Below, piece by piece: positions 31,690-46,856 of a DNA stretch of 64,000 nucleotides. A program made the translations under genes and the position numbers. The notes under the pieces are model-generated. The model worked only from the letters and a program-made list of their open reading frames with translations, was not told where the DNA came from and did no database searches. This stretch comes from Nitrospira japonica (GTDB taxonomy: Bacteria > Nitrospirota > Thermodesulfovibrionia > Thermodesulfovibrionales > SM23-35): positions 1 through 64,000 of the forward strand of contig DYFC01000060.1 in the NCBI GenBank assembly GCA_020725385.1, in the 5' to 3' direction. Position 1 is the first letter of the stretch. The number at the start of each line of letters is the position of its first letter.

Positions 31690-33579
31690 ATGTCAATCTC
31701 GAATAGAAAAATAACAAGATTAATAAAAGACCTTTTTGATATTGATGCACAAAAAAGACATATGGCTGCAGAAGTTCTTGGTGAAGGAGATGAAAGAGTA
31801 ATTTATCCATTAATTCGGGCTCTTAAAGATGATAATCCCGGTGTTCAGGATGCTGCAATGCGTTCATTGATTCGCATAGGTGGTGAAGTAACTGCTTATA
31901 TGATTATTCCTTTACTTAGAGACGAGCCATTATTAAGAAATACTGCTTTAATAATTCTGAAAGAAATAGGTGAGGTTACCGTACCTTTACTCAAGCCGCT
32001 ACTAAAGGATAAAGATTATGATATTCGCAAGTTCGCTCTTGATCTTATATCTGAAATTAAGAAATGTGACTATCCTGAAGAAATAAAAAGGTTATTAAAA
32101 GAAGACCCGAACCCCAATGTACGTGCTTCTGCTGCAAAGGTAATAGGACTTCTCCAATATAAAGAAGCAGTATCTTCTCTCCTGGATGCTCTTAATGATG
32201 AGGAGTGGGTTTGTTTCTCTGCACTGGAATCTTTATCAATGTTCAAGGATGACTCAACAATAAACTCTATAATAGCATTACTCAATAATTCATCCGAGTC
32301 AATAAGATATGCAGCAATTGATACTTTAGGAAAGATTGGTTTTCCGGAAGCTGGAAAAGCATTATTGGAATACTTTAAAAGAGCCAATGAATTCGAAAAA
32401 GAGGCGATTCTAAAAAGTCTTGTCCGGATAGGAATGACTCCAACCTTCCCTGAATCATCGGAAATCCTAAAAAATATTCTTAAAAATGGTGATTGGGATG
32501 AAAAGATGATAGCTCTTAAGGGTATCGCCGATATTAAAGATGTAAGCGCAATTAAAGATATTGTTGACCTTGCAGGTTCTTTAGATTCATCAGAGCCTGA
32601 TGATGAAGATAAACTTATTTTTATTAAACATATTCTAATGATTATAGGAAGTAATGATTCATTAATAGATGTTTTGAATGATCCCGGAATTCGTTACAGG
32701 GGTCGGAGAATAGCGGTTGAAGTTCTCGGGGAACTCGGGTATAGGAATGCTGTCCCGTATATAATAAATTTGCTCGGGATAGATTTTAGAGATGTGAGAA
32801 GAGCTGCTGCAAAAGCGCTAGTTGATATGCCAGATAAGAATATAGGTAATATCTTACTTGATGCCATTGATGATGAAGATGGACATGTTAGAAAAGAGGC
32901 GATAATTGCACTCGGAAAGATTGGCGACAAAACAGCTTTTCTACCTTTAATGAATTGTCTTTTAAAAGAACCTTATAAGGATGTTGTTGAAGAAATAATT
33001 AAAACTCTTCTTATTCTCGATGCAGAATCCGTTTATAAATATTTAAATGAATTCCCGGATTCCATTAAGGAAATAGTAGCAAGATATTCGGATGATATTG
33101 ATATGTTAATTAAGCTTTCGGAAGAAGGAAACAAAGATATTAGAACCGCAGCAATTATTAGTTTGGGGAATTTCAATGAAGAAAAAGTATTTAATAGGTT
33201 ATCTAATGCACTAAAAGATAGCGAACCCGAGGTTAGAAAAGCAGCTGTAATGGCTATGGGAAATATGAATTGTAGTTGTGATGGTATAAAAACCGCGCTT
33301 AATGACCCTGATATGTGGGTAAGGATTTATGCTGTAAAGACATTAAGCCGTACACTTAAACAAGATACGGTTAACTCGCTAAAAAACATGCTTTCAGACA
33401 GAGATATTCCTGTAGTTTTGTCAGCTATAGACGCTATTTCACAGCTTAATAAAGAAGATTCATTCGCAATATTGAGACCTTTACTTGAGCATCATGAAGA
33501 AGAAATAAGAGAAAAAGTTCACAATATTATATTTGGAAATTGTGAATATGAAGACAAAAATATGGTGGTAGTGAGATGA
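31690..33579 (+). CDS. HEAT/PBS-lyase repeat protein
   Basis: Many LxxxLxDxxxxVRxxAAxALG repeats. Confidence 0.9.
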   Translation: MSISNRKITRLIKDLFDIDAQKRHMAAEVLGEGDERVIYPLIRALKDDNPGVQDAAMRSLIRIGGEVTAYMIIPLLRDEPLLRNTALIILKEIGEVTVPLLKPLLKDKDYDIRKFALDLISEIKKCDYPEEIKRLLKEDPNPNVRASAAKVIGLLQYKEAVSSLLDALNDEEWVCFSALESLSMFKDDSTINSIIALLNNSSESIRYAAIDTLGKIGFPEAGKALLEYFKRANEFEKEAILKSLVRIGMTPTFPESSEILKNILKNGDWDEKMIALKGIADIKDVSAIKDIVDLAGSLDSSEPDDEDKLIFIKHILMIIGSNDSLIDVLNDPGIRYRGRRIAVEVLGELGYRNAVPYIINLLGIDFRDVRRAAAKALVDMPDKNIGNILLDAIDDEDGHVRKEAIIALGKIGDKTAFLPLMNCLLKEPYKDVVEEIIKTLLILDAESVYKYLNEFPDSIKEIVARYSDDIDMLIKLSEEGNKDIRTAAIISLGNFNEEKVFNRLSNALKDSEPEVRKAAVMAMGNMNCSCDGIKTALNDPDMWVRIYAVKTLSRTLKQDTVNSLKNMLSDRDIPVVLSAIDAISQLNKEDSFAILRPLLEHHEEEIREKVHNIIFGNCEYEDKNMVVVR

Positions 33580-34412
33580 GTTTGAATATGACATCATCTA
33601 ATATAAAACTCCGCGATGAGACCTTCAAACAATTAAGGGATATTATCTATGAAAAAAGCGGAATATTTATTCCGGACAATAAAAAGTATTTTCTTGAAAA
33701 TAAGCTTATCCGGAGGATTCAGGAAAAAAATTTTAACAGCTTTGAAGATTATCTATATTTAATTCGCTATAATTCAAACGGGAACGAACTATCCTCGCTT
33801 TTTGACCTTGTGACTACCAATGAAACATTCTTTTTCAGAGAACCATTACAATTTGATATTCTTTTTGATTTTATAATGCCGGAAATATCGAGGGGTAAGG
33901 GAAATAATAACTTTAAAATATGGTCTGCAGCATGTTCTACCGGTGAAGAGCCATATACAATTGTATTAATAAAAACAGAGAAAAAACCTGATATGAAACT
34001 CGATGTTTATGCTTCGGATATAAGTGAAGGTGTTATTAATGCTGCCAAAGCCGGTATTTATTCTTCCTATTCTGTGAGAAACATTCCGGAAACATATTTG
34101 AGAAAGTATTTCAAGCAAAACGGACAGGGATTTGAGTTAGATCAAAATATTAAAAATTCAGTGAGATTTTTAAATATAAATCTCAATGACGAAAAAAAAA
34201 TGAGATCAATGTATGACTTTGATGTTATATTCTGCCGTAATGTTCTTATATATTTTGATGATAAAGCAAAGCAAAAAGTGGTTTCACTTTTATATAACAG
34301 TCTTAGACCGGGGGGTTATCTAATAACAGGTTCAACTGAAAGTTTACACAATGTTACAAGGGCTTTTAAACCTGTTGTTATTAACAAAGCAATTGTTTAC
34401 AGGAGGACATAA
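33576..34412 (+). CDS. cheR: Chemotaxis methyltransferase
   Basis: TTNETFFFRE, IWSAACSTGEEPY, FDVIFCRNVLIYF. Confidence 0.95.
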   Translation: MSLNMTSSNIKLRDETFKQLRDIIYEKSGIFIPDNKKYFLENKLIRRIQEKNFNSFEDYLYLIRYNSNGNELSSLFDLVTTNETFFFREPLQFDILFDFIMPEISRGKGNNNFKIWSAACSTGEEPYTIVLIKTEKKPDMKLDVYASDISEGVINAAKAGIYSSYSVRNIPETYLRKYFKQNGQGFELDQNIKNSVRFLNINLNDEKKMRSMYDFDVIFCRNVLIYFDDKAKQKVVSLLYNSLRPGGYLITGSTESLHNVTRAFKPVVINKAIVYRRT

Positions 34413-41686: not shown

Positions 41687-42271
41687 ATGAAAAAGGCATT
41701 TTGGAAATTTGGTATGGTTTTATTTGTATTAACAGTCTCTTTAATTTTCGCATGTTCCAAGCCGCCTACGGAAGAAATGGCAAAAGCTGAGAAAGCTGTT
41801 GCAGATGCGAAAGCAAAAGAAGCTGATTTATACGTTCCTGATATTTTTGCAAAAGCTCAGGATGAGATGAAAAAAGCTAATGATTTTGTTGCTGCAAAAA
41901 AATATAAAGAGGCTAAAACAGCGGCTCTCGAGGTTGTAAAATTAGCACAAGAATCTGTTACACTCATCGAACAAAACAAACAGAAGATGAAGGAAGAGCT
42001 TGAAAAAATGCTTCCTGATGTACAAAAAGCACTTGATGAAACAAAATCTGCTGCAACAGCAGCTATAAAAAAGAAAGCTGTATCATCAAAAGAAGAACTT
42101 CAATCTACAATTGGTAAACTTGAGCTTGATATGACATCCGTGAAAGAGCAACTTCAGGCAGGTAAAATCAGGCAGGCAAGCGATCTGGCCAGGACACTTT
42201 CAGAGGAGATAAAAGCTCAAAGACAAAACCTTGCCGATTTGATGGCACAACAAAAACCGGCAAAGAAATAA
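41687..42271 (+). CDS. Coiled-coil lipoprotein (DUF4398-like)
   Basis: Lipobox IFAC followed by SKPP; Ala/Lys/Glu helical body; AGGAGG RBS. Confidence 0.8.
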   Translation: MKKAFWKFGMVLFVLTVSLIFACSKPPTEEMAKAEKAVADAKAKEADLYVPDIFAKAQDEMKKANDFVAAKKYKEAKTAALEVVKLAQESVTLIEQNKQKMKEELEKMLPDVQKALDETKSAATAAIKKKAVSSKEELQSTIGKLELDMTSVKEQLQAGKIRQASDLARTLSEEIKAQRQNLADLMAQQKPAKK

Positions 42272-42291
42272 ACTTATTTTTTGCTAATTCT

Positions 42292-42329
42292 TAACAAAGG
42301 GGTGAATATAATCTGTAACCCCTTTGTTA
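42292..42329. terminator. Intrinsic terminator hairpin between convergent genes
   Basis: TAACAAAGGGG-loop-CCCCTTTGTTA followed by GTTTT. Confidence 0.7.
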
Positions 42330-42411
42330 GTTTTGGCAAAGAATTTTTTGTATTCACGGAATCTATCAAAAGGAATTAAGGAATATTATTAATCCGTAAA
42401 TTTATAAGAAC

Positions 42412-42723
42412 CTATTCAGATTTTATAGCTTTTTGTAGAATTTCAACAGATGGGACATTCGAGAGTCTTCCTGACTCATCAACGAACATTCTTCAGTTAA
42501 ATCCTGCATTACCTAATGGTTGTAATTCTTTGCCATTTATGAAAATTGATGGCGAACCAGAGACTTTTAATGATATGGCTTCCTCCTGAGTAATTCTATG
42601 AAATTTGAGATCAGCCTGTTTATTTTCTTTTTCAATCGCAAGAATAATATTTGTTTTTAAAGCCTCTTCTGTTGGACAGTTTGATGAAAAGTAACAGTCT
42701 ATTTTTAGTCTCTCTTTATTCAT
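42412..42723 (-). CDS. Thioredoxin-fold selenoprotein (UGA at 42493-42495 read as Sec)
   Basis: GSPSIFINGKE..GFN-U-RMFVDESGRLSNVPSVEILQKAIKSE; UGA sits at the Cys of the CRx(Y/F) motif of this family; SECIS-like hairpin follows. Confidence 0.8.
42455..42489 (-). promoter_or_regulatory. Bacterial SECIS-like hairpin
   Basis: AUGUUCG..GAGUC-AGGAA-GACUC.CGAAUGU; apical loop begins 21 nt after UGA and has G at position 2. Confidence 0.7.
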
Positions 42724-44426
42724 TCTTTGGATTTTACCGTTTCATTATCGCCTAAAGCTCTATAACAGGCTTCTGAGTAGCTTAAGGCAGTCTGTGAATC
42801 TGGAAAAGCCTGAAAACATTTGAGCGCATCTTCAAATTTGCCAATATTCATATAGCTTATTCCAAGACATGTGGCAATATGTTCGCTTTCAGGATAATGT
42901 TTTCTTGCTTCTTCAAGAATAGTAATTGACTCCATATATTCTCTATTCTTTTGCTTTATAATTCCTAATCCGAGAAATGCCCGGTGATCTGGAAAATATG
43001 ATAAAGCTTTAAAGAAAAGTGTTTCAGCAATTTTTTCTTTATCGGGTATCTCTTTTATATTTGCATAATCTCCATGACTAAATGTCATAGCAAGCCTTGA
43101 GAGAAAATCAGCATGATATTTATATAAATCGCTCTTGTCAACAAGGTTAATCGAACTCGCATTTTCAGGCAGGCTTTTATAAAATTCTGTTCTAAGTTTG
43201 TTTCCATAAGAAAGTATTTTTTCTTTCGAAAGGCTGCTGTCGGTCTCAAAATACATTATATCTTCTATTTTTTTCAGCCATATATCATCTCCTGTTTTGT
43301 TTCTACTCTGGAAGTCTTCGTAAAGAGCAGTGCCCGGAAAAATATCGAGAATATAAAATATTGAATTGAGTGGTTTAATTTCTTTTATTAAAGTTATAGT
43401 TTCATCGATGGTTTCTTCAGTTTCTCCGGGAGAACCATATATAAAATAAGCACGGGGTAAAATACCATATTTAACTGTCAAAGAAAATGCTCTCTTTATA
43501 TCATCTGTCTTTATGTTTTTGTTAAGAACGTGTCTGATTTTTTCAGAGCCGCTTTCAATACCGTAGCTTATTTGAATACAGCCGGCTTTTCTCATCCAGT
43601 AAAGCATTTCATCGTTTACTAAATTCACACGTGATATAGCAAACCAGTTTATTTTTAAATCTCTTTCAATTATATTTTTACAAATCTCAATTACACGATC
43701 TTCTCTCATTGTAAAAGTGTCATCAGAAACATAAAAAAAAGAGACACCTTTTTTGTTTAATAATTCTAATTGTTCAACAAAATATTCAGGAGAGTGAAAC
43801 CTGACCCTTCTTCCCCAGAATTTTGGTGAACCACAAAAGGCGCAATTAGAAGGACAACCACGTGATGAAATCAAATGTTGGAATATAAAATATTTTGCAG
43901 GCATTGGTAGATTATCAATATTTTCTATAAAATCTGAAGATCCGGTCTTAAATAATTTTCCATCTCTAATAAAGGCTATGCCTTTATTAGAACTAATTCT
44001 TTCTTCTTCTTTTCTATCAATGTATTGAATGAGATTTAAAAATGTATATTCTCCTTCACCAAGAACAATATAGTCTATTTGTTTGAAATTTCTAAGAAGG
44101 TGTTCCCACAAAAAAGTTGCTCCAATTCCTCCAAAAACAATCTTGACATTGTTCAATGTTTTTTTGGCAATCTTTGCAATCTCAATGGCACCCCATCTAT
44201 TAGCATTGACAATGGAAAAACCAATTACATCAGGGCTTTTTTCTTTGAATACTTTTCTGATTTCAAAAGAATTCTTATTAAAATTATGCCAGTTTAGAAT
44301 TTCAACATCATATCCATTTTGTTTGAGTAATGCACCAATATAGTATAAACCTATCGGTACAACACTAACGTCTTCAGCATGAATTCTCTGGTCCAGAAAA
44401 TAAGGATAAATTAGCAATACTTTCAT
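42720..44426 (-). CDS. Cobalamin-binding radical SAM protein with C-terminal TPR repeats
   Basis: P.GL.YI..L B12 domain, GEGE, SRGCPSNCAFC, GIESGS, FPGT; TPR-like C-terminus. Confidence 0.92.
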   Translation of the reverse strand: MKVLLIYPYFLDQRIHAEDVSVVPIGLYYIGALLKQNGYDVEILNWHNFNKNSFEIRKVFKEKSPDVIGFSIVNANRWGAIEIAKIAKKTLNNVKIVFGGIGATFLWEHLLRNFKQIDYIVLGEGEYTFLNLIQYIDRKEEERISSNKGIAFIRDGKLFKTGSSDFIENIDNLPMPAKYFIFQHLISSRGCPSNCAFCGSPKFWGRRVRFHSPEYFVEQLELLNKKGVSFFYVSDDTFTMREDRVIEICKNIIERDLKINWFAISRVNLVNDEMLYWMRKAGCIQISYGIESGSEKIRHVLNKNIKTDDIKRAFSLTVKYGILPRAYFIYGSPGETEETIDETITLIKEIKPLNSIFYILDIFPGTALYEDFQSRNKTGDDIWLKKIEDIMYFETDSSLSKEKILSYGNKLRTEFYKSLPENASSINLVDKSDLYKYHADFLSRLAMTFSHGDYANIKEIPDKEKIAETLFFKALSYFPDHRAFLGLGIIKQKNREYMESITILEEARKHYPESEHIATCLGISYMNIGKFEDALKCFQAFPDSQTALSYSEACYRALGDNETVKSKE

Positions 44427-44464
44427 TACTTGCTCTATATTCTTAGCTCTTTGCTCTTCGCTTT

Positions 44465-44935
44465 TTAAAACCTTAAAGTCGCTTTTAATCTTTTAGGATG
44501 CAACAAAAGATCAAGACCTGCATTTGCATTAGGCACGTGAATATTAGATGCCATGATTGCTTCAACAGCACAGCCTTCTCCCTCGGAAACCGAGATACCG
44601 ATTTTTGCTGACTTCAACATTTTTCTGTCATTATTACCATTTCCGAAAGCAACAACAGTTTCGGTCCCGAGGTTTTTTATATATTCTTCTTTCTGAATGT
44701 CATGTCTTTTACCTTTAAGAATATATATTGTGCATTTAATGCCTTCAAGCTCTTTTCTTGCTTTTCCAAAAGTATCGGCAGTAAGAATATGCACTTTGAG
44801 AAATTTTGAGATTTCGTTTAATTGAGTTCTAACACCAGGTAATAGTACACCGTTTACTGAAAGAGTTCCTGTAAAATCAGAAACAAGATGTTCAAGTTTA
44901 ACCAGACCAAATCCCGGTATTTTAAGCTTAAACAT
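44465..44935 (-). CDS. HAD-family hydrolase (soluble P-type ATPase-like)
   Basis: DFTGTL, LTADTFG, GNGNND, EG; AAGGAGG RBS before ATG 44935. Confidence 0.88.
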   Translation of the reverse strand: MFKLKIPGFGLVKLEHLVSDFTGTLSVNGVLLPGVRTQLNEISKFLKVHILTADTFGKARKELEGIKCTIYILKGKRHDIQKEEYIKNLGTETVVAFGNGNNDRKMLKSAKIGISVSEGEGCAVEAIMASNIHVPNANAGLDLLLHPKRLKATLRF

Positions 44936-45011
44936 AACCACCTCCTTGAAAATAAATTACAATTCAATTATATATAATGTGGTAATATTTTTGTATTAAC
45001 CGGACTGTTAG

Positions 45012-45074
45012 TTTGAACCGCTTGAACCGTTTAAACCATGTAATCTATGTAAACCGTGTGAACTATTTGAACAA
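45012..45074 (+). repeat. Degenerate 9-bp tandem repeat, 7 units
   Basis: TTTGAACCG CTTGAACCG TTTAAACCA TGTAATCTA TGTAAACCG TGTGAACTA TTTGAACAA. Confidence 0.7.
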
Positions 45075-45108
45075 GTCTTTGTTTTTCGGCAAGTTTATAT
45101 TTCATGTA

Positions 45109-46302
45109 TTACTTTTTACGATTATTTATGACAATAATGAATATGATAAAAAACCCGGCAGATAAACTTGCTGTTATCGAGCCAAAATAAAAGGTTGCTG
45201 AGGGTGAAATCTTATCCCATAACCACCCCCCTATAAAACTTGCCGGAAACATGGCTAAACCGATTGCAGTATTATAAACTCCAAATGCTGTTGCCTTAAA
45301 ATCAGGCGGGATAATTGTTGCAAGAAAAGCTTTCTGTATTCCTTCTGTAAGTCCCATAAAAAGCCCGTAAAAACCGAATAATAACCATATGGTACTTGTG
45401 TCTTTAGCCACTGCAAAACCATAATAGAGCATAGCAAAGAGAATGAATCCGATTAGTATCACTCTTTTTCTTCCGAACCTGTCTGCTGCTATTCCTGCTG
45501 GAATTGCAGATAAAGAATATATGAGATTGAACATAAGATATACAACAGGAATCATGAGGGCTGAAATCCCTATTTGTTGGGCTCTGAGAATAAGGAATAC
45601 GTCACTTGAATTTCCCAAAGCAAACAAGGTTGCTATTGCCACAAAAAATTTAAACTTCCAGTCAAAATGTTTAAGAGTCAGTTTCGGCCTTTCTGAGGGC
45701 ATTTTAATAGCTTGCTTCTTTTCCTTGATAAATAAGATTATCAACAATACAGCTATTGCTCCGGGAATCATAGAGAGCCAGAATACCCATCTATAATTGT
45801 TTGAAAAAATACCCAGCAAAAAAAATGCAAGAGCTGGTCCAATTACAGCACCCATTGTATCCATCGAACGGTGAAAACCGAATGCTCTACCAAGATGTGT
45901 TTTTTCAGTTGACTCTGCAATAATAGCATCGCGTGGTGCCGTGCGTACCCCTTTGCCGAATCTGTCCATAAAACGAGAGCCCATTACATGGTGCCAACCT
46001 GTAGCAAGAGCAACAATAGGTCTGCTCAAAGTAGATATTCCGTATCCTGCAGCCATTAACCACTTCCGATTACCTATTCTGTCTGAAAACCATCCTGAAA
46101 ATACTTTCAATAAACTCGCGGTAGATTCTGCTATGCCTTCTATTAAACCTATAACAGATTTATTTACACCAAGCACATTAGCAAGAAATAATGGCACAAG
46201 TGGATATATCATCTCAGAACTGACATCCATAAAAAAACTGACGAGCCCTGCAATAAATACATTCTGTCCAAAACCAAAAAATTTTCTATTATCCTTTGTC
46301 AC
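45109..46302 (-). CDS. MFS transporter
   Basis: SFFMDVSSE, SDRIGNRK, DRFGKGVRTAPRDA, GRAFGFHRSMD. Confidence 0.92.
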   Translation of the reverse strand: MTKDNRKFFGFGQNVFIAGLVSFFMDVSSEMIYPLVPLFLANVLGVNKSVIGLIEGIAESTASLLKVFSGWFSDRIGNRKWLMAAGYGISTLSRPIVALATGWHHVMGSRFMDRFGKGVRTAPRDAIIAESTEKTHLGRAFGFHRSMDTMGAVIGPALAFFLLGIFSNNYRWVFWLSMIPGAIAVLLIILFIKEKKQAIKMPSERPKLTLKHFDWKFKFFVAIATLFALGNSSDVFLILRAQQIGISALMIPVVYLMFNLIYSLSAIPAGIAADRFGRKRVILIGFILFAMLYYGFAVAKDTSTIWLLFGFYGLFMGLTEGIQKAFLATIIPPDFKATAFGVYNTAIGLAMFPASFIGGWLWDKISPSATFYFGSITASLSAGFFIIFIIVINNRKK

Positions 46303-46322
46303 CTGTATTGTCCTTTCCTTAA

Positions 46323-46856
46323 CTATATATTTTTTTTCTGGCTCTTTTCATAAACCTTTTTTGAAAAATCATCAAACATCTTTTCACATTCTTTTATTTT
46401 CTCTATAGCCTGTTTTCTCAACGGAGCTTTTACTAAATCTCTTTTTTCAATTTTTTTCAACCAATGTTTTAACTTATCAAGTTCTTCTTCATTTTCTTCA
46501 ACCTCAGCGAAAATAAAATTCTTCCTTTCAATCTCAAACTTTATTTCTTTAAAAAAGTCTTCGCATTTTTCTATCACTTCCTGATATTCTTCATTTCTTG
46601 AGTCCATGAATACTTTAATGATTCTTTCTTCCTGTTTTTTATCTACTGCCTTACCTTCAACCAGCATCCCTTCACCCTTATATCCTTCGATTGTTTCGAC
46701 AAGTTTTTTTAGTTCATTTATATTTTCATTAGAATAAGGTATAACCCAGACTGTCTGATAATTTACAGCACCGAGCTTTTTTAATTGACGCCAGACGTAC
46801 ACCCTGGCTTTAGATGGCTCGGCCGGTAGACTATATGAAAAAAATAGCCATTTCAT
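46323..46856 (-). CDS. ChrB N-terminal-domain protein (putative DNA-binding regulator)
   Basis: MKWLFFSYSLPAEPSKARVYVWRQLKKLGAV..VWVIP..RNEEYQE; true start ATG 46856. Confidence 0.85.
   Translation of the reverse strand: MKWLFFSYSLPAEPSKARVYVWRQLKKLGAVNYQTVWVIPYSNENINELKKLVETIEGYKGEGMLVEGKAVDKKQEERIIKVFMDSRNEEYQEVIEKCEDFFKEIKFEIERKNFIFAEVEENEEELDKLKHWLKKIEKRDLVKAPLRKQAIEKIKECEKMFDDFSKKVYEKSQKKNI

Follow-up and report, generated by a model that had tools for sequence, protein, structure and literature searches.

Does a short open reading frame (ORF) on the minus strand of a Nitrospira japonica contig end at its TGA codon, or is this codon read as selenocysteine (Sec)? The question was raised by a first-pass annotation of positions 1-64,000 of contig DYFC01000060.1 (assembly GCA_020725385.1), the whole stretch being called the window below. 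In the ORF list of the window the frame occupies 42493..42723 on the minus strand, encodes 76 aa and stops at the TGA at 42495-42493. When this TGA was decoded as Sec (U) in a translation of 42400-42723 of the minus strand, a product of 103 aa was obtained, which carries U at residue 77 and continues for a further 26 residues to a TAG at 42414-42412. The coordinates and the product that the annotation had described were thus reproduced, as was the motif CYFSSNCP, which contains residues C10 and C16. We conclude that the locus very probably encodes a genuine cytoplasmic selenoprotein of 103 residues, and that the gene has been shortened by gene callers and is not a broken one. Its elements, all on the minus strand, are as follows.

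42412..42723, minus strand: predicted complete selenoprotein gene, with ATG at 42723-42721, 103 codons including the UGA-Sec codon 77, and TAG at 42414-42412.
42676..42696, minus strand: codons of C10...C16 (C-x5-C); all 29 aligned sequences have both Cys residues.
42550..42558, minus strand: codons of G56-S57-P58, the predicted cis-proline loop of a thioredoxin fold; invariant in 29 sequences and aligned with the GSP of the DF family described below.
42493..42495, minus strand: in-frame UGA, predicted U77; the aligned codon is TGA in close loci and TGT or TGC in distant ones.

Among 5.8 billion predicted proteins searched, 35 homologues were found, all of 71-96 aa, which cover 68-74% of the query and end at the UGA. 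At the level of DNA the picture is different. A six-frame search of the same phylum gave a match to the read-through protein in 77 of 401 genomes; the rows at E <= 1.3e-15 (82 counted) align with the gene product over residues ~5-101 and each contain one in-frame TGA, and the weaker rows are short pieces or relatives at 27-31% identity. The first-pass annotation had regarded homologues that end at this position as speaking against read-through; the database proteins are indeed cut there, but the DNA behind them continues in frame with a conserved tail.

For the comparison of codons, tails and hairpins, 30 homologous loci were fetched from the phylum, and the aligned codon is TGA in all 30. A second scan, which covered one genome per species of all prokaryotes, yielded 65 loci: 55 close ones (44-84% identity), every one of which has TGA at the aligned codon, and 10 distant ones (27-41%), every one of which has TGT or TGC, set in a 'CR.Y' motif. 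In a profile-profile alignment, hhalign likewise set U77-R78 against the C-R that is invariant in the Cys-containing family, which bears out the earlier claim that the UGA falls where related proteins have Cys.

The tail behind the UGA is the best-conserved part of the protein, with the consensus U-R-M-F-x-D-E-S-G-R-L-x-N-V-P-S-V. Among 29 sequences, the invariant residues comprise C10, Y11, S13, C16, A37, A49, G56, S57 and P58 in the N-terminal to middle part, and U77, R78, S84, G85, L87 and P91 at or after the UGA. In the 30 phylum loci, the entropy of the tail at codon positions 1, 2 and 3 is 0.54, 0.49 and 1.35 bits, similar to that of the 20 codons before the TGA (0.68, 0.43 and 1.63 bits). 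Frame 0 stays open for 22 codons past the TGA in 30 of 30 loci, and stops occur in the other two frames in 27 and 22 of the 30, respectively. Judged by this codon pattern, the downstream tail is translated.

A SECIS (selenocysteine insertion sequence)-like hairpin had been noticed within this coding tail, with the segment GAGUC-AGGAA-GACUC lying at 42477-42463 of the minus strand. Its parts are the following.

42453..42491, minus strand: SECIS-like hairpin in the coding tail, conserved and covarying in homologues.
42491-42484 paired with 42460-42453, minus strand: lower stem.
42478-42473 paired with 42467-42462, minus strand: upper stem.
42472-42468, minus strand: apical loop AGGAA.

The hairpin alone proves nothing, because its fold energy as a single sequence (-10.9 kcal/mol) equals that of shuffled sequences (z 0.05; 94 of 200 shuffles as good). 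The comparative data are more telling. Sixty nucleotides around the TGA were aligned from the 30 homologues, and RNAalifold recovered the upper stem from this alignment. The two-stem structure is paired in 88.6% of 420 cells, a share that drops to 29-48% once the 3' partners are shifted by one to three columns, and the observed covariation score was reached by none of 500 shuffles. Pair 21-37 occurs as CG 14, UA 7, AU 1 and UG 1 times, and pair 15-39 as CG 14, UA 5 and UG 3 times. Both pairs connect a synonymous third position with position 1 or 3 of a codon that varies; therefore, protein constraint does not explain the covariation. The codons chosen for the invariant D-E-S-G-R-L residues also suit the stem (Glu as GAG in 26 of 26, Leu as CTC in 26 of 30, Arg as AGR in 26 of 27 cases), and the apical loop reads NGGNA with an invariant GG. 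In bacterial SECIS elements the consensus spacing is roughly 16-37 nt; here the loop starts 20 nt downstream of the UGA, within that range. The hairpin that had been proposed at the expected spacing was therefore recovered as a conserved and covarying element, and its assignment as the putative SECIS of this gene is supported by the alignment.

The draft genome from which the window comes (2.46 Mb, 71 contigs, 96.6% complete) was searched for the machinery that Sec insertion requires, which the first-pass annotation had named as a check. Most of it was found: selA (628 bits), two selB genes (384 and 358 bits), a tRNA-Sec with anticodon UCA (72 bits), and a gene for the formate dehydrogenase alpha subunit, fdhA (874 bits), with one in-frame TGA. 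One component, selD, was not found. Two fdh-type genes with an in-frame TGA in an H-x-A-R-x-U-H-S context lie on the minus strand of one contig (C27:32861-34909 and C27:13869-14627). Both of these TGAs are followed by a hairpin with a GG-containing loop at a spacing similar to that in the selenoprotein gene, a weak likeness judged by eye.

Several results weigh against the decoding as Sec. Besides the unremarkable single-sequence fold energy, an Rfam scan of 42350-42560 at E <= 10 reported no SECIS family and only two chance-level matches (U8 and folP). The top three matches of the selD model TIGR00476 in the source assembly are ThiL, HypE and PurM, and tblastn with the SelD of a same-genus genome against this assembly returned nothing. 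The window protein scores 43 bits on the family model NF049942, under its curated cut-off of 70. Finally, the Sec position is occupied by R, H, L or W in four close database proteins of full length (P0036, P0046, P0047 and P0075); Sec may have been lost and be dispensable in them, or they may be sequencing errors or translations under another genetic code. In this set, the R, L and W codons are each one base away from TGA.

Regarding selD, the gene is present in four of five relatives checked, each of which has its own TGA; it was likewise not found in the same-genus genome G286. In one same-genus genome, the selD copy sits on a contig of 2.6 kb, and the shortest contig of the source assembly is 5,155 bases long. 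In genome G199, of the same family, selD (L121:5472-6392) lies ~2 kb from a gene whose ortholog in the source genome (89% identity over 252 aa) is found in the last 800 bases of contig C45, at about 33326-34131. Because synteny breaks at the end of C45, the data suggest that the absence of selD is an assembly gap, with the expected site just past the end of this contig.

What kind of protein is it? Pfam gave only a sub-threshold match to Thioredoxin_3 (E 0.0019, 18.6 bits against a cut-off of 24.8), and the sole NCBIfam family at E <= 0.1 is NF049942, 'DF family (seleno)protein' (E 3.4e-11, model positions 2-96 of 96). Four relatives of the Sec-containing clade score similarly low on this model, 40-50 bits, and 14 of 20 scanned Cys-type full-length relatives score 76-112 bits. 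A profile search of 1.84 billion representatives collected 1,176 proteins at E <= 0.001, of which the nearest end at profile position 71 and the more distant, full-length ones have Cys at the Sec position. When the Sec clade was aligned with the DF family by hhalign (probability 99.9%, E 4e-31, 99 columns), C16 was paired with the invariant Cys of the DF-family 'DCPS' motif, and GSP with GSP. These alignments place the gene in a clade that is sister to the DF family and has only Sec members; Sec77 here replaces the second conserved Cys, the C-terminal one of the 'CR' motif.

The AlphaFold2 model built from the 29-sequence alignment has a predicted local distance difference test score (pLDDT) of 88 and shows a minimal thioredoxin fold with an additional beta-hairpin inserted before the last helix; it is this insertion that carries Sec. 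VIA-align superposed 82 of 103 residues on TrxP (Z 8.2, root-mean-square deviation 3.4), and nearly all of its top 50 rows are thioredoxin-fold proteins. Foldseek against the PDB found nothing at E <= 0.001, the thioredoxins appearing weakly at E >= 1.8e-3. Taking the AlphaFold2 model, VIA-align and the invariant GSP together, the read-through product is predicted to have the beta-alpha-beta-alpha-beta-beta-alpha arrangement with a cis-Pro loop, and the thioredoxin-like fold proposed at first sight holds. The protein has no CxxC, UxxC or CxxU motif; instead it has C10-x5-C16, in which only C16 occupies the position of the thioredoxin active site, directly ahead of helix 1. In thioredoxins, the last strand ends next to the active-site Cys and the cis-Pro loop. 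On this ground Sec77, at the end of strand 4, may be placed beside Cys16 and the cis-Pro58 loop, and a Cys-Sec centre, with Cys10 as a further member, would result.

The family as such is already known and named (NF049942, 'hypothetical protein DF'), so the locus does not represent a new kind of selenoprotein. The name goes back to a prediction made by deep-Sep in Desulfosediminicola flagellatus IMCC35005 (Xiao & Zhang 2025, PMC12013277); the sections of that paper available to us report Cys homologues, no TGA-containing homologues elsewhere, no conserved domain and no function. A 2026 review lists DF under NF049942 without a motif, and among the families which it cites from Haft & Tolstoy 2025, as given in the excerpts at hand, none is DF-like or a MerB-fused thioredoxin (PMC13188914). 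The DF family and the window protein share two conserved Cys positions, the GSP loop, a 'CR' motif followed by G...P, and a length of ~100 aa. The place of Sec differs from that in the published selenoprotein: compared by eye with Table S2 of PMC12013277, the D. flagellatus protein has U at the first conserved Cys, corresponding to C16 here, whereas the window protein has it at the second. Moreover, the published DF is a single Sec member, whereas the clade described here is TGA-only and widespread.

Also by eye, the sequence in that table ends one residue before the site aligned with Sec77. The published DF gene may continue through a second, missed UGA into a further tail of ~25 residues, which would make it a two-Sec protein.

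What is new here is the Sec at the second Cys, a TGA-only clade across several phyla with a conserved putative SECIS, MerB fusions, and a context of mercury (mer) and arsenic (ars) resistance genes. Word searches of the literature, which did not take in Haft & Tolstoy 2025 (PMC12013261), turned up no publication that describes a Sec domain of DF or thioredoxin-like type, be it as a fusion with MerB or within mer or ars operons.

The genomic context was examined for the 55 close loci with up to 4 kb per side, the neighbours being clustered by BLAST and their representatives named by NCBIfam. The recurrent partners were these.

In-frame C-terminal MerB fusion (PF03243, E 1e-29): 12 of 55 loci.
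MerA as the immediate upstream neighbour in the same orientation (TIGR02053, 493 bits; cut-off 454): 10 of 55 loci.
MerR nearby: 3 of 55 loci.
ArsP/SaoE-type permease: 10 of 55 loci, in 5 of which it ends 10-23 nt upstream.
ArsR: 8 of 55 loci.
Thioredoxin-coupled ArsC (TIGR02691): 5 of 55 loci.
ACR3: 5 of 55 loci.

Sorted by type, there are 17 mer loci and 13 ars or ArsP-type loci, with no overlap between the two; the remaining 25 fit neither type. A set of shorter loci gave the same picture. Six complete MerA copies of 467-469 aa match positions 98-558 of the 560-position MerA model; since the matches begin at position 98, the NmerA domain is absent from them. Among eight long Cys-type DF proteins examined, single cases are fused to MerT plus HMA, to MerB, to MerC (weakly), to AhpC/TSA and to a thioredoxin domain.

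The MerB fusion proteins have 322-328 residues (for example L025:1507-2490, L042:808-1788 and L037:805-1788, with nine more among L057-L081). Their UGA lies in the first third of the protein, which makes the fused product invisible to standard gene calling. In the MerB part, a C-x-x-D motif is followed further on by an F-C motif; we take both to resemble the catalytic residues of MerB. A conserved ORF of 118-123 aa without a family match stands behind the fusion in five loci, and a SHOCT-domain ORF stands ahead of it in three.

In the synthesis of the protein, SelB and Sec-tRNA(Sec) would decode the UGA at 42495-42493, the two-stem hairpin in the next 39 nt of coding sequence acting as the SECIS, and translation would then proceed for 26 residues past Sec. 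Regarding the function, a hypothesis may be put forward. The Cys-Sec centre could capture soft metal(loid)s, namely Hg(II), organomercurials, As(III) and organoarsenicals, and the captured species could be handed to resistance proteins, as NmerA does to MerA or ArsD to ArsA. This role of capture and hand-off is the one that we favour, at about even odds. A more specific proposal is put forward with greater reserve, as one that we would not favour on present grounds: that the clade represents a founding selenium-based metal(loid) trafficking domain, always with Sec, in which Cys16-Sec77 captures Hg(II)/methylmercury or As(III)/methylarsenite and delivers it to MerB, to MerA lacking NmerA, or to ArsP/ACR3-type exporters, thereby replacing NmerA, MerP or ArsD in anaerobes of several phyla.

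The parallels to known systems are partial. NmerA, a small domain with a Cys pair, accepts Hg(II) from other proteins and transfers it to the core of MerA. The job proposed here is the same as that of NmerA and MerP, and the MerA genes beside members of the clade are without NmerA; the fold, however, is thioredoxin and not the ferredoxin-like HMA fold, there is no sequence relation, and the predicted ligands are Cys plus Sec in place of CxxC. ArsD has a thioredoxin fold without thioredoxin activity, and its clustered Cys residues bind As(III) and deliver it to the efflux system. Here the likeness consists of the fold and the ars-operon location and would be one of working alike only, as the window protein has no ArsD match in Pfam or NCBIfam, and ArsD has another Cys layout and no Sec. 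The minimal thioredoxins of the MJ0307/MTH895 type (TIGR00411, TIGR00412, Thioredoxin_3) have the same minimal fold; DF-family members match TIGR00411 weakly and the window protein matches Thioredoxin_3 weakly, yet the latter falls below all cut-offs, lacks CxxC, and has the added beta-hairpin with Sec. A further analogy is the SAO organometallic system, which, in the portions of its description available to us, combines SaoT, a thioredoxin-like selenoprotein of the CD2368 family (NF040730), with the MerB-like selenoprotein SaoL (Haft & Gwadz, bioRxiv 10.1101/2022.07.06.499078). What the two cases have in common is a small thioredoxin-fold (seleno)protein that is connected with a MerB-like lyase and with a presumed chemistry of heavy metals or organometals. 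The U of SaoT lies within a CxxC-type motif, whereas that of the window protein is a distant C-terminal residue, and the SaoT model NF040730 gave no match to the window protein at E <= 0.1. Among the models, it is SaoL to which the fused MerB domains of the relatives come closest, with 90 bits where the cut-off is 140; these domains contain no in-frame TGA.

The metal hypothesis has its own difficulties. Twenty-five of the 55 loci have neither a mer nor an ars context, and in the window no mer or ars gene adjoins the selenoprotein gene, whose local neighbours (radical SAM, HAD-like and MFS) give no hint of metals. MerB was not found in the source genome, the positive control, genome G221, giving two copies. 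In addition, the AhpC/TSA and thioredoxin fusions of the Cys-type DF proteins point to redox chemistry. The evidence for a link to metals therefore comes from the family and does not extend to this organism.

Of the other explanations, the one that survives best accepts a genuine selenoprotein and makes it a thiol/selenol oxidoreductase, which would cycle via a Cys16-Sec77 selenenylsulfide and feed electrons to ArsC, MerB/MerA or peroxiredoxins without binding metal itself. The thioredoxin fold, the Cys at the canonical active-site position and the cis-Pro loop all fit such an enzyme, and Sec is typical of redox-active sites. The thioredoxin-coupled ArsC adjoining in five loci and the fusions to AhpC/TSA and to a thioredoxin domain point the same way. 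Nevertheless, there is no CxxC, and the partner residue is 61 positions off, in an insertion absent from ordinary thioredoxins. The fusions and tight adjacencies involve MerB, MerT plus HMA, MerA without NmerA and an ArsP-type permease, not disulfide reductases, and several ars loci already have a separate MTH895/ArsE thioredoxin-like protein alongside. We therefore consider the oxidoreductase unlikely, although it deserves serious attention.

Very little can be said for the UGA as a true stop, with a functional product of 76 residues and a conserved downstream part that is an RNA element or a separate small ORF. All 35 database homologues are annotated as ending there, selD was not found in the assembly, and the downstream hairpin could in principle be regulatory. 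However, third positions vary in the tail as they do upstream, with frame 0 open in 30 of 30 loci and the other frames mostly closed, and the Cys-containing relatives run through the aligned site into a homologous tail. Judged by the structural model, a 76-aa form would miss both the final pair of strands and the C-terminal helix, and 12 of the 55 loci continue in frame into an entire MerB domain. An ending at residue 76 is accordingly judged highly improbable.

Equally far-fetched is a recoding of the UGA as something other than Sec, be it as Cys by a Sec-like tRNA(Cys) and a second SelB or by near-cognate read-through. The source genome does have a Sec-like tRNA with a Cys anticodon upstream of its second selB, but this anticodon, GCA, reads UGC and UGU, not UGA, and a normal tRNA-Sec(UCA), selA and a selenoprotein-type fdhA are present. 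For the insertion of Cys, UGY would suffice, yet none of the 55 close homologues uses it.

That a nonsense mutation has turned a thioredoxin-like gene with Cys into a pseudogene here, as a stop at the site of Cys in distant relatives could suggest, is negligibly probable given purifying selection on both sides of the TGA and its retention in every close homologue examined across Nitrospirota, Desulfobacterota-type bacteria, Thermoleophilia and Caldimicrobium. Because the TGA is conserved, distant relatives have Cys at the aligned codon and the tail is coding-like, the pseudogene and true-stop readings are untenable; these two and the recoding as Cys, which fails on the GCA anticodon, were rejected.

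Decoding of the UGA as Sec in a clade associated with metal(loid) resistance would have several implications. The gene is carried as a truncated 'hypothetical protein' of 71-80 aa in at least dozens of genomes of the four groups just named, and the NCBIfam model meant to catch the clade scores the window protein below its cut-off. The association with Hg and As resistance offers a functional lead for a selenoprotein family that was published in 2025 as a domain-less hypothetical with one Sec member. It is unusual for a clade never to swap Sec for Cys, and this speaks for a need for selenium chemistry. If the Hg link is true, selenium supply could affect the detoxification of mercury and methylmercury in anoxic sediments and aquifers.

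In the window itself, the selenoprotein gene is the last of a run of minus-strand genes, the others being the following.

45109-46302, minus strand: MFS transporter.
44465-44941, minus strand: HAD-like protein.
42720-44426, minus strand: B12-binding radical SAM protein of 568 aa with C-terminal TPR repeats (Pfam Radical_SAM, B12-binding, TPR).

The stop codon of the radical SAM gene (TGA, 42722-42720) overlaps the ATG of the selenoprotein gene (42723-42721) as ATGA, and the two genes are probably co-transcribed. The best NCBIfam match of the radical SAM/TPR protein is BchE, with 203 bits, far under the cut-off of 481. This gene was considered as a partner of the whole family and rejected: when four window neighbours were compared by tblastn with 30 loci, it was found, besides the window itself, only in the same-genus genome G286. 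Beyond the run lie a second MFS gene, a Usp gene, a PiT-type phosphate transporter and a P-type ATPase. MFS neighbours recur in four and Usp in three of the closest loci, and in one member of this group (L102) an ArsP-type permease and ACR3 are encoded no more than 3 kb away.

Between the convergent genes 41687-42271 (plus strand) and 42412-42723 (minus strand), a 10-bp inverted repeat was observed at 42293-42302 and 42319-42328 (AACAAAGGGG / CCCCTTTGTT) with a 16-nt loop. A consensus scan of 42200-46600 for promoters and terminators gave counts at or below the shuffle expectation and did not flag this repeat; the element at 42293-42328 may be a terminator shared by the two genes.

Apart from the window, the source genome contains a 96-nt Sec-like tRNA with the Cys anticodon GCA (57.7 bits on the tRNA-Sec model), which ends in U-CCA and lies at L014:1497-1592, equivalent to contig C15:23008-23099 on the minus strand. 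It is located directly upstream of the second selB (384 bits; C15:21101-22957). Pairs of a selC* tRNA(Cys) and selB* were described by Mukai et al. (PMC5389517), and in the parts of that paper available to us selB* is placed in only two deltaproteobacterial orders. The GCA tRNA and the second selB match such selC*/selB* pairs, and their occurrence in Nitrospirota may extend the known range.

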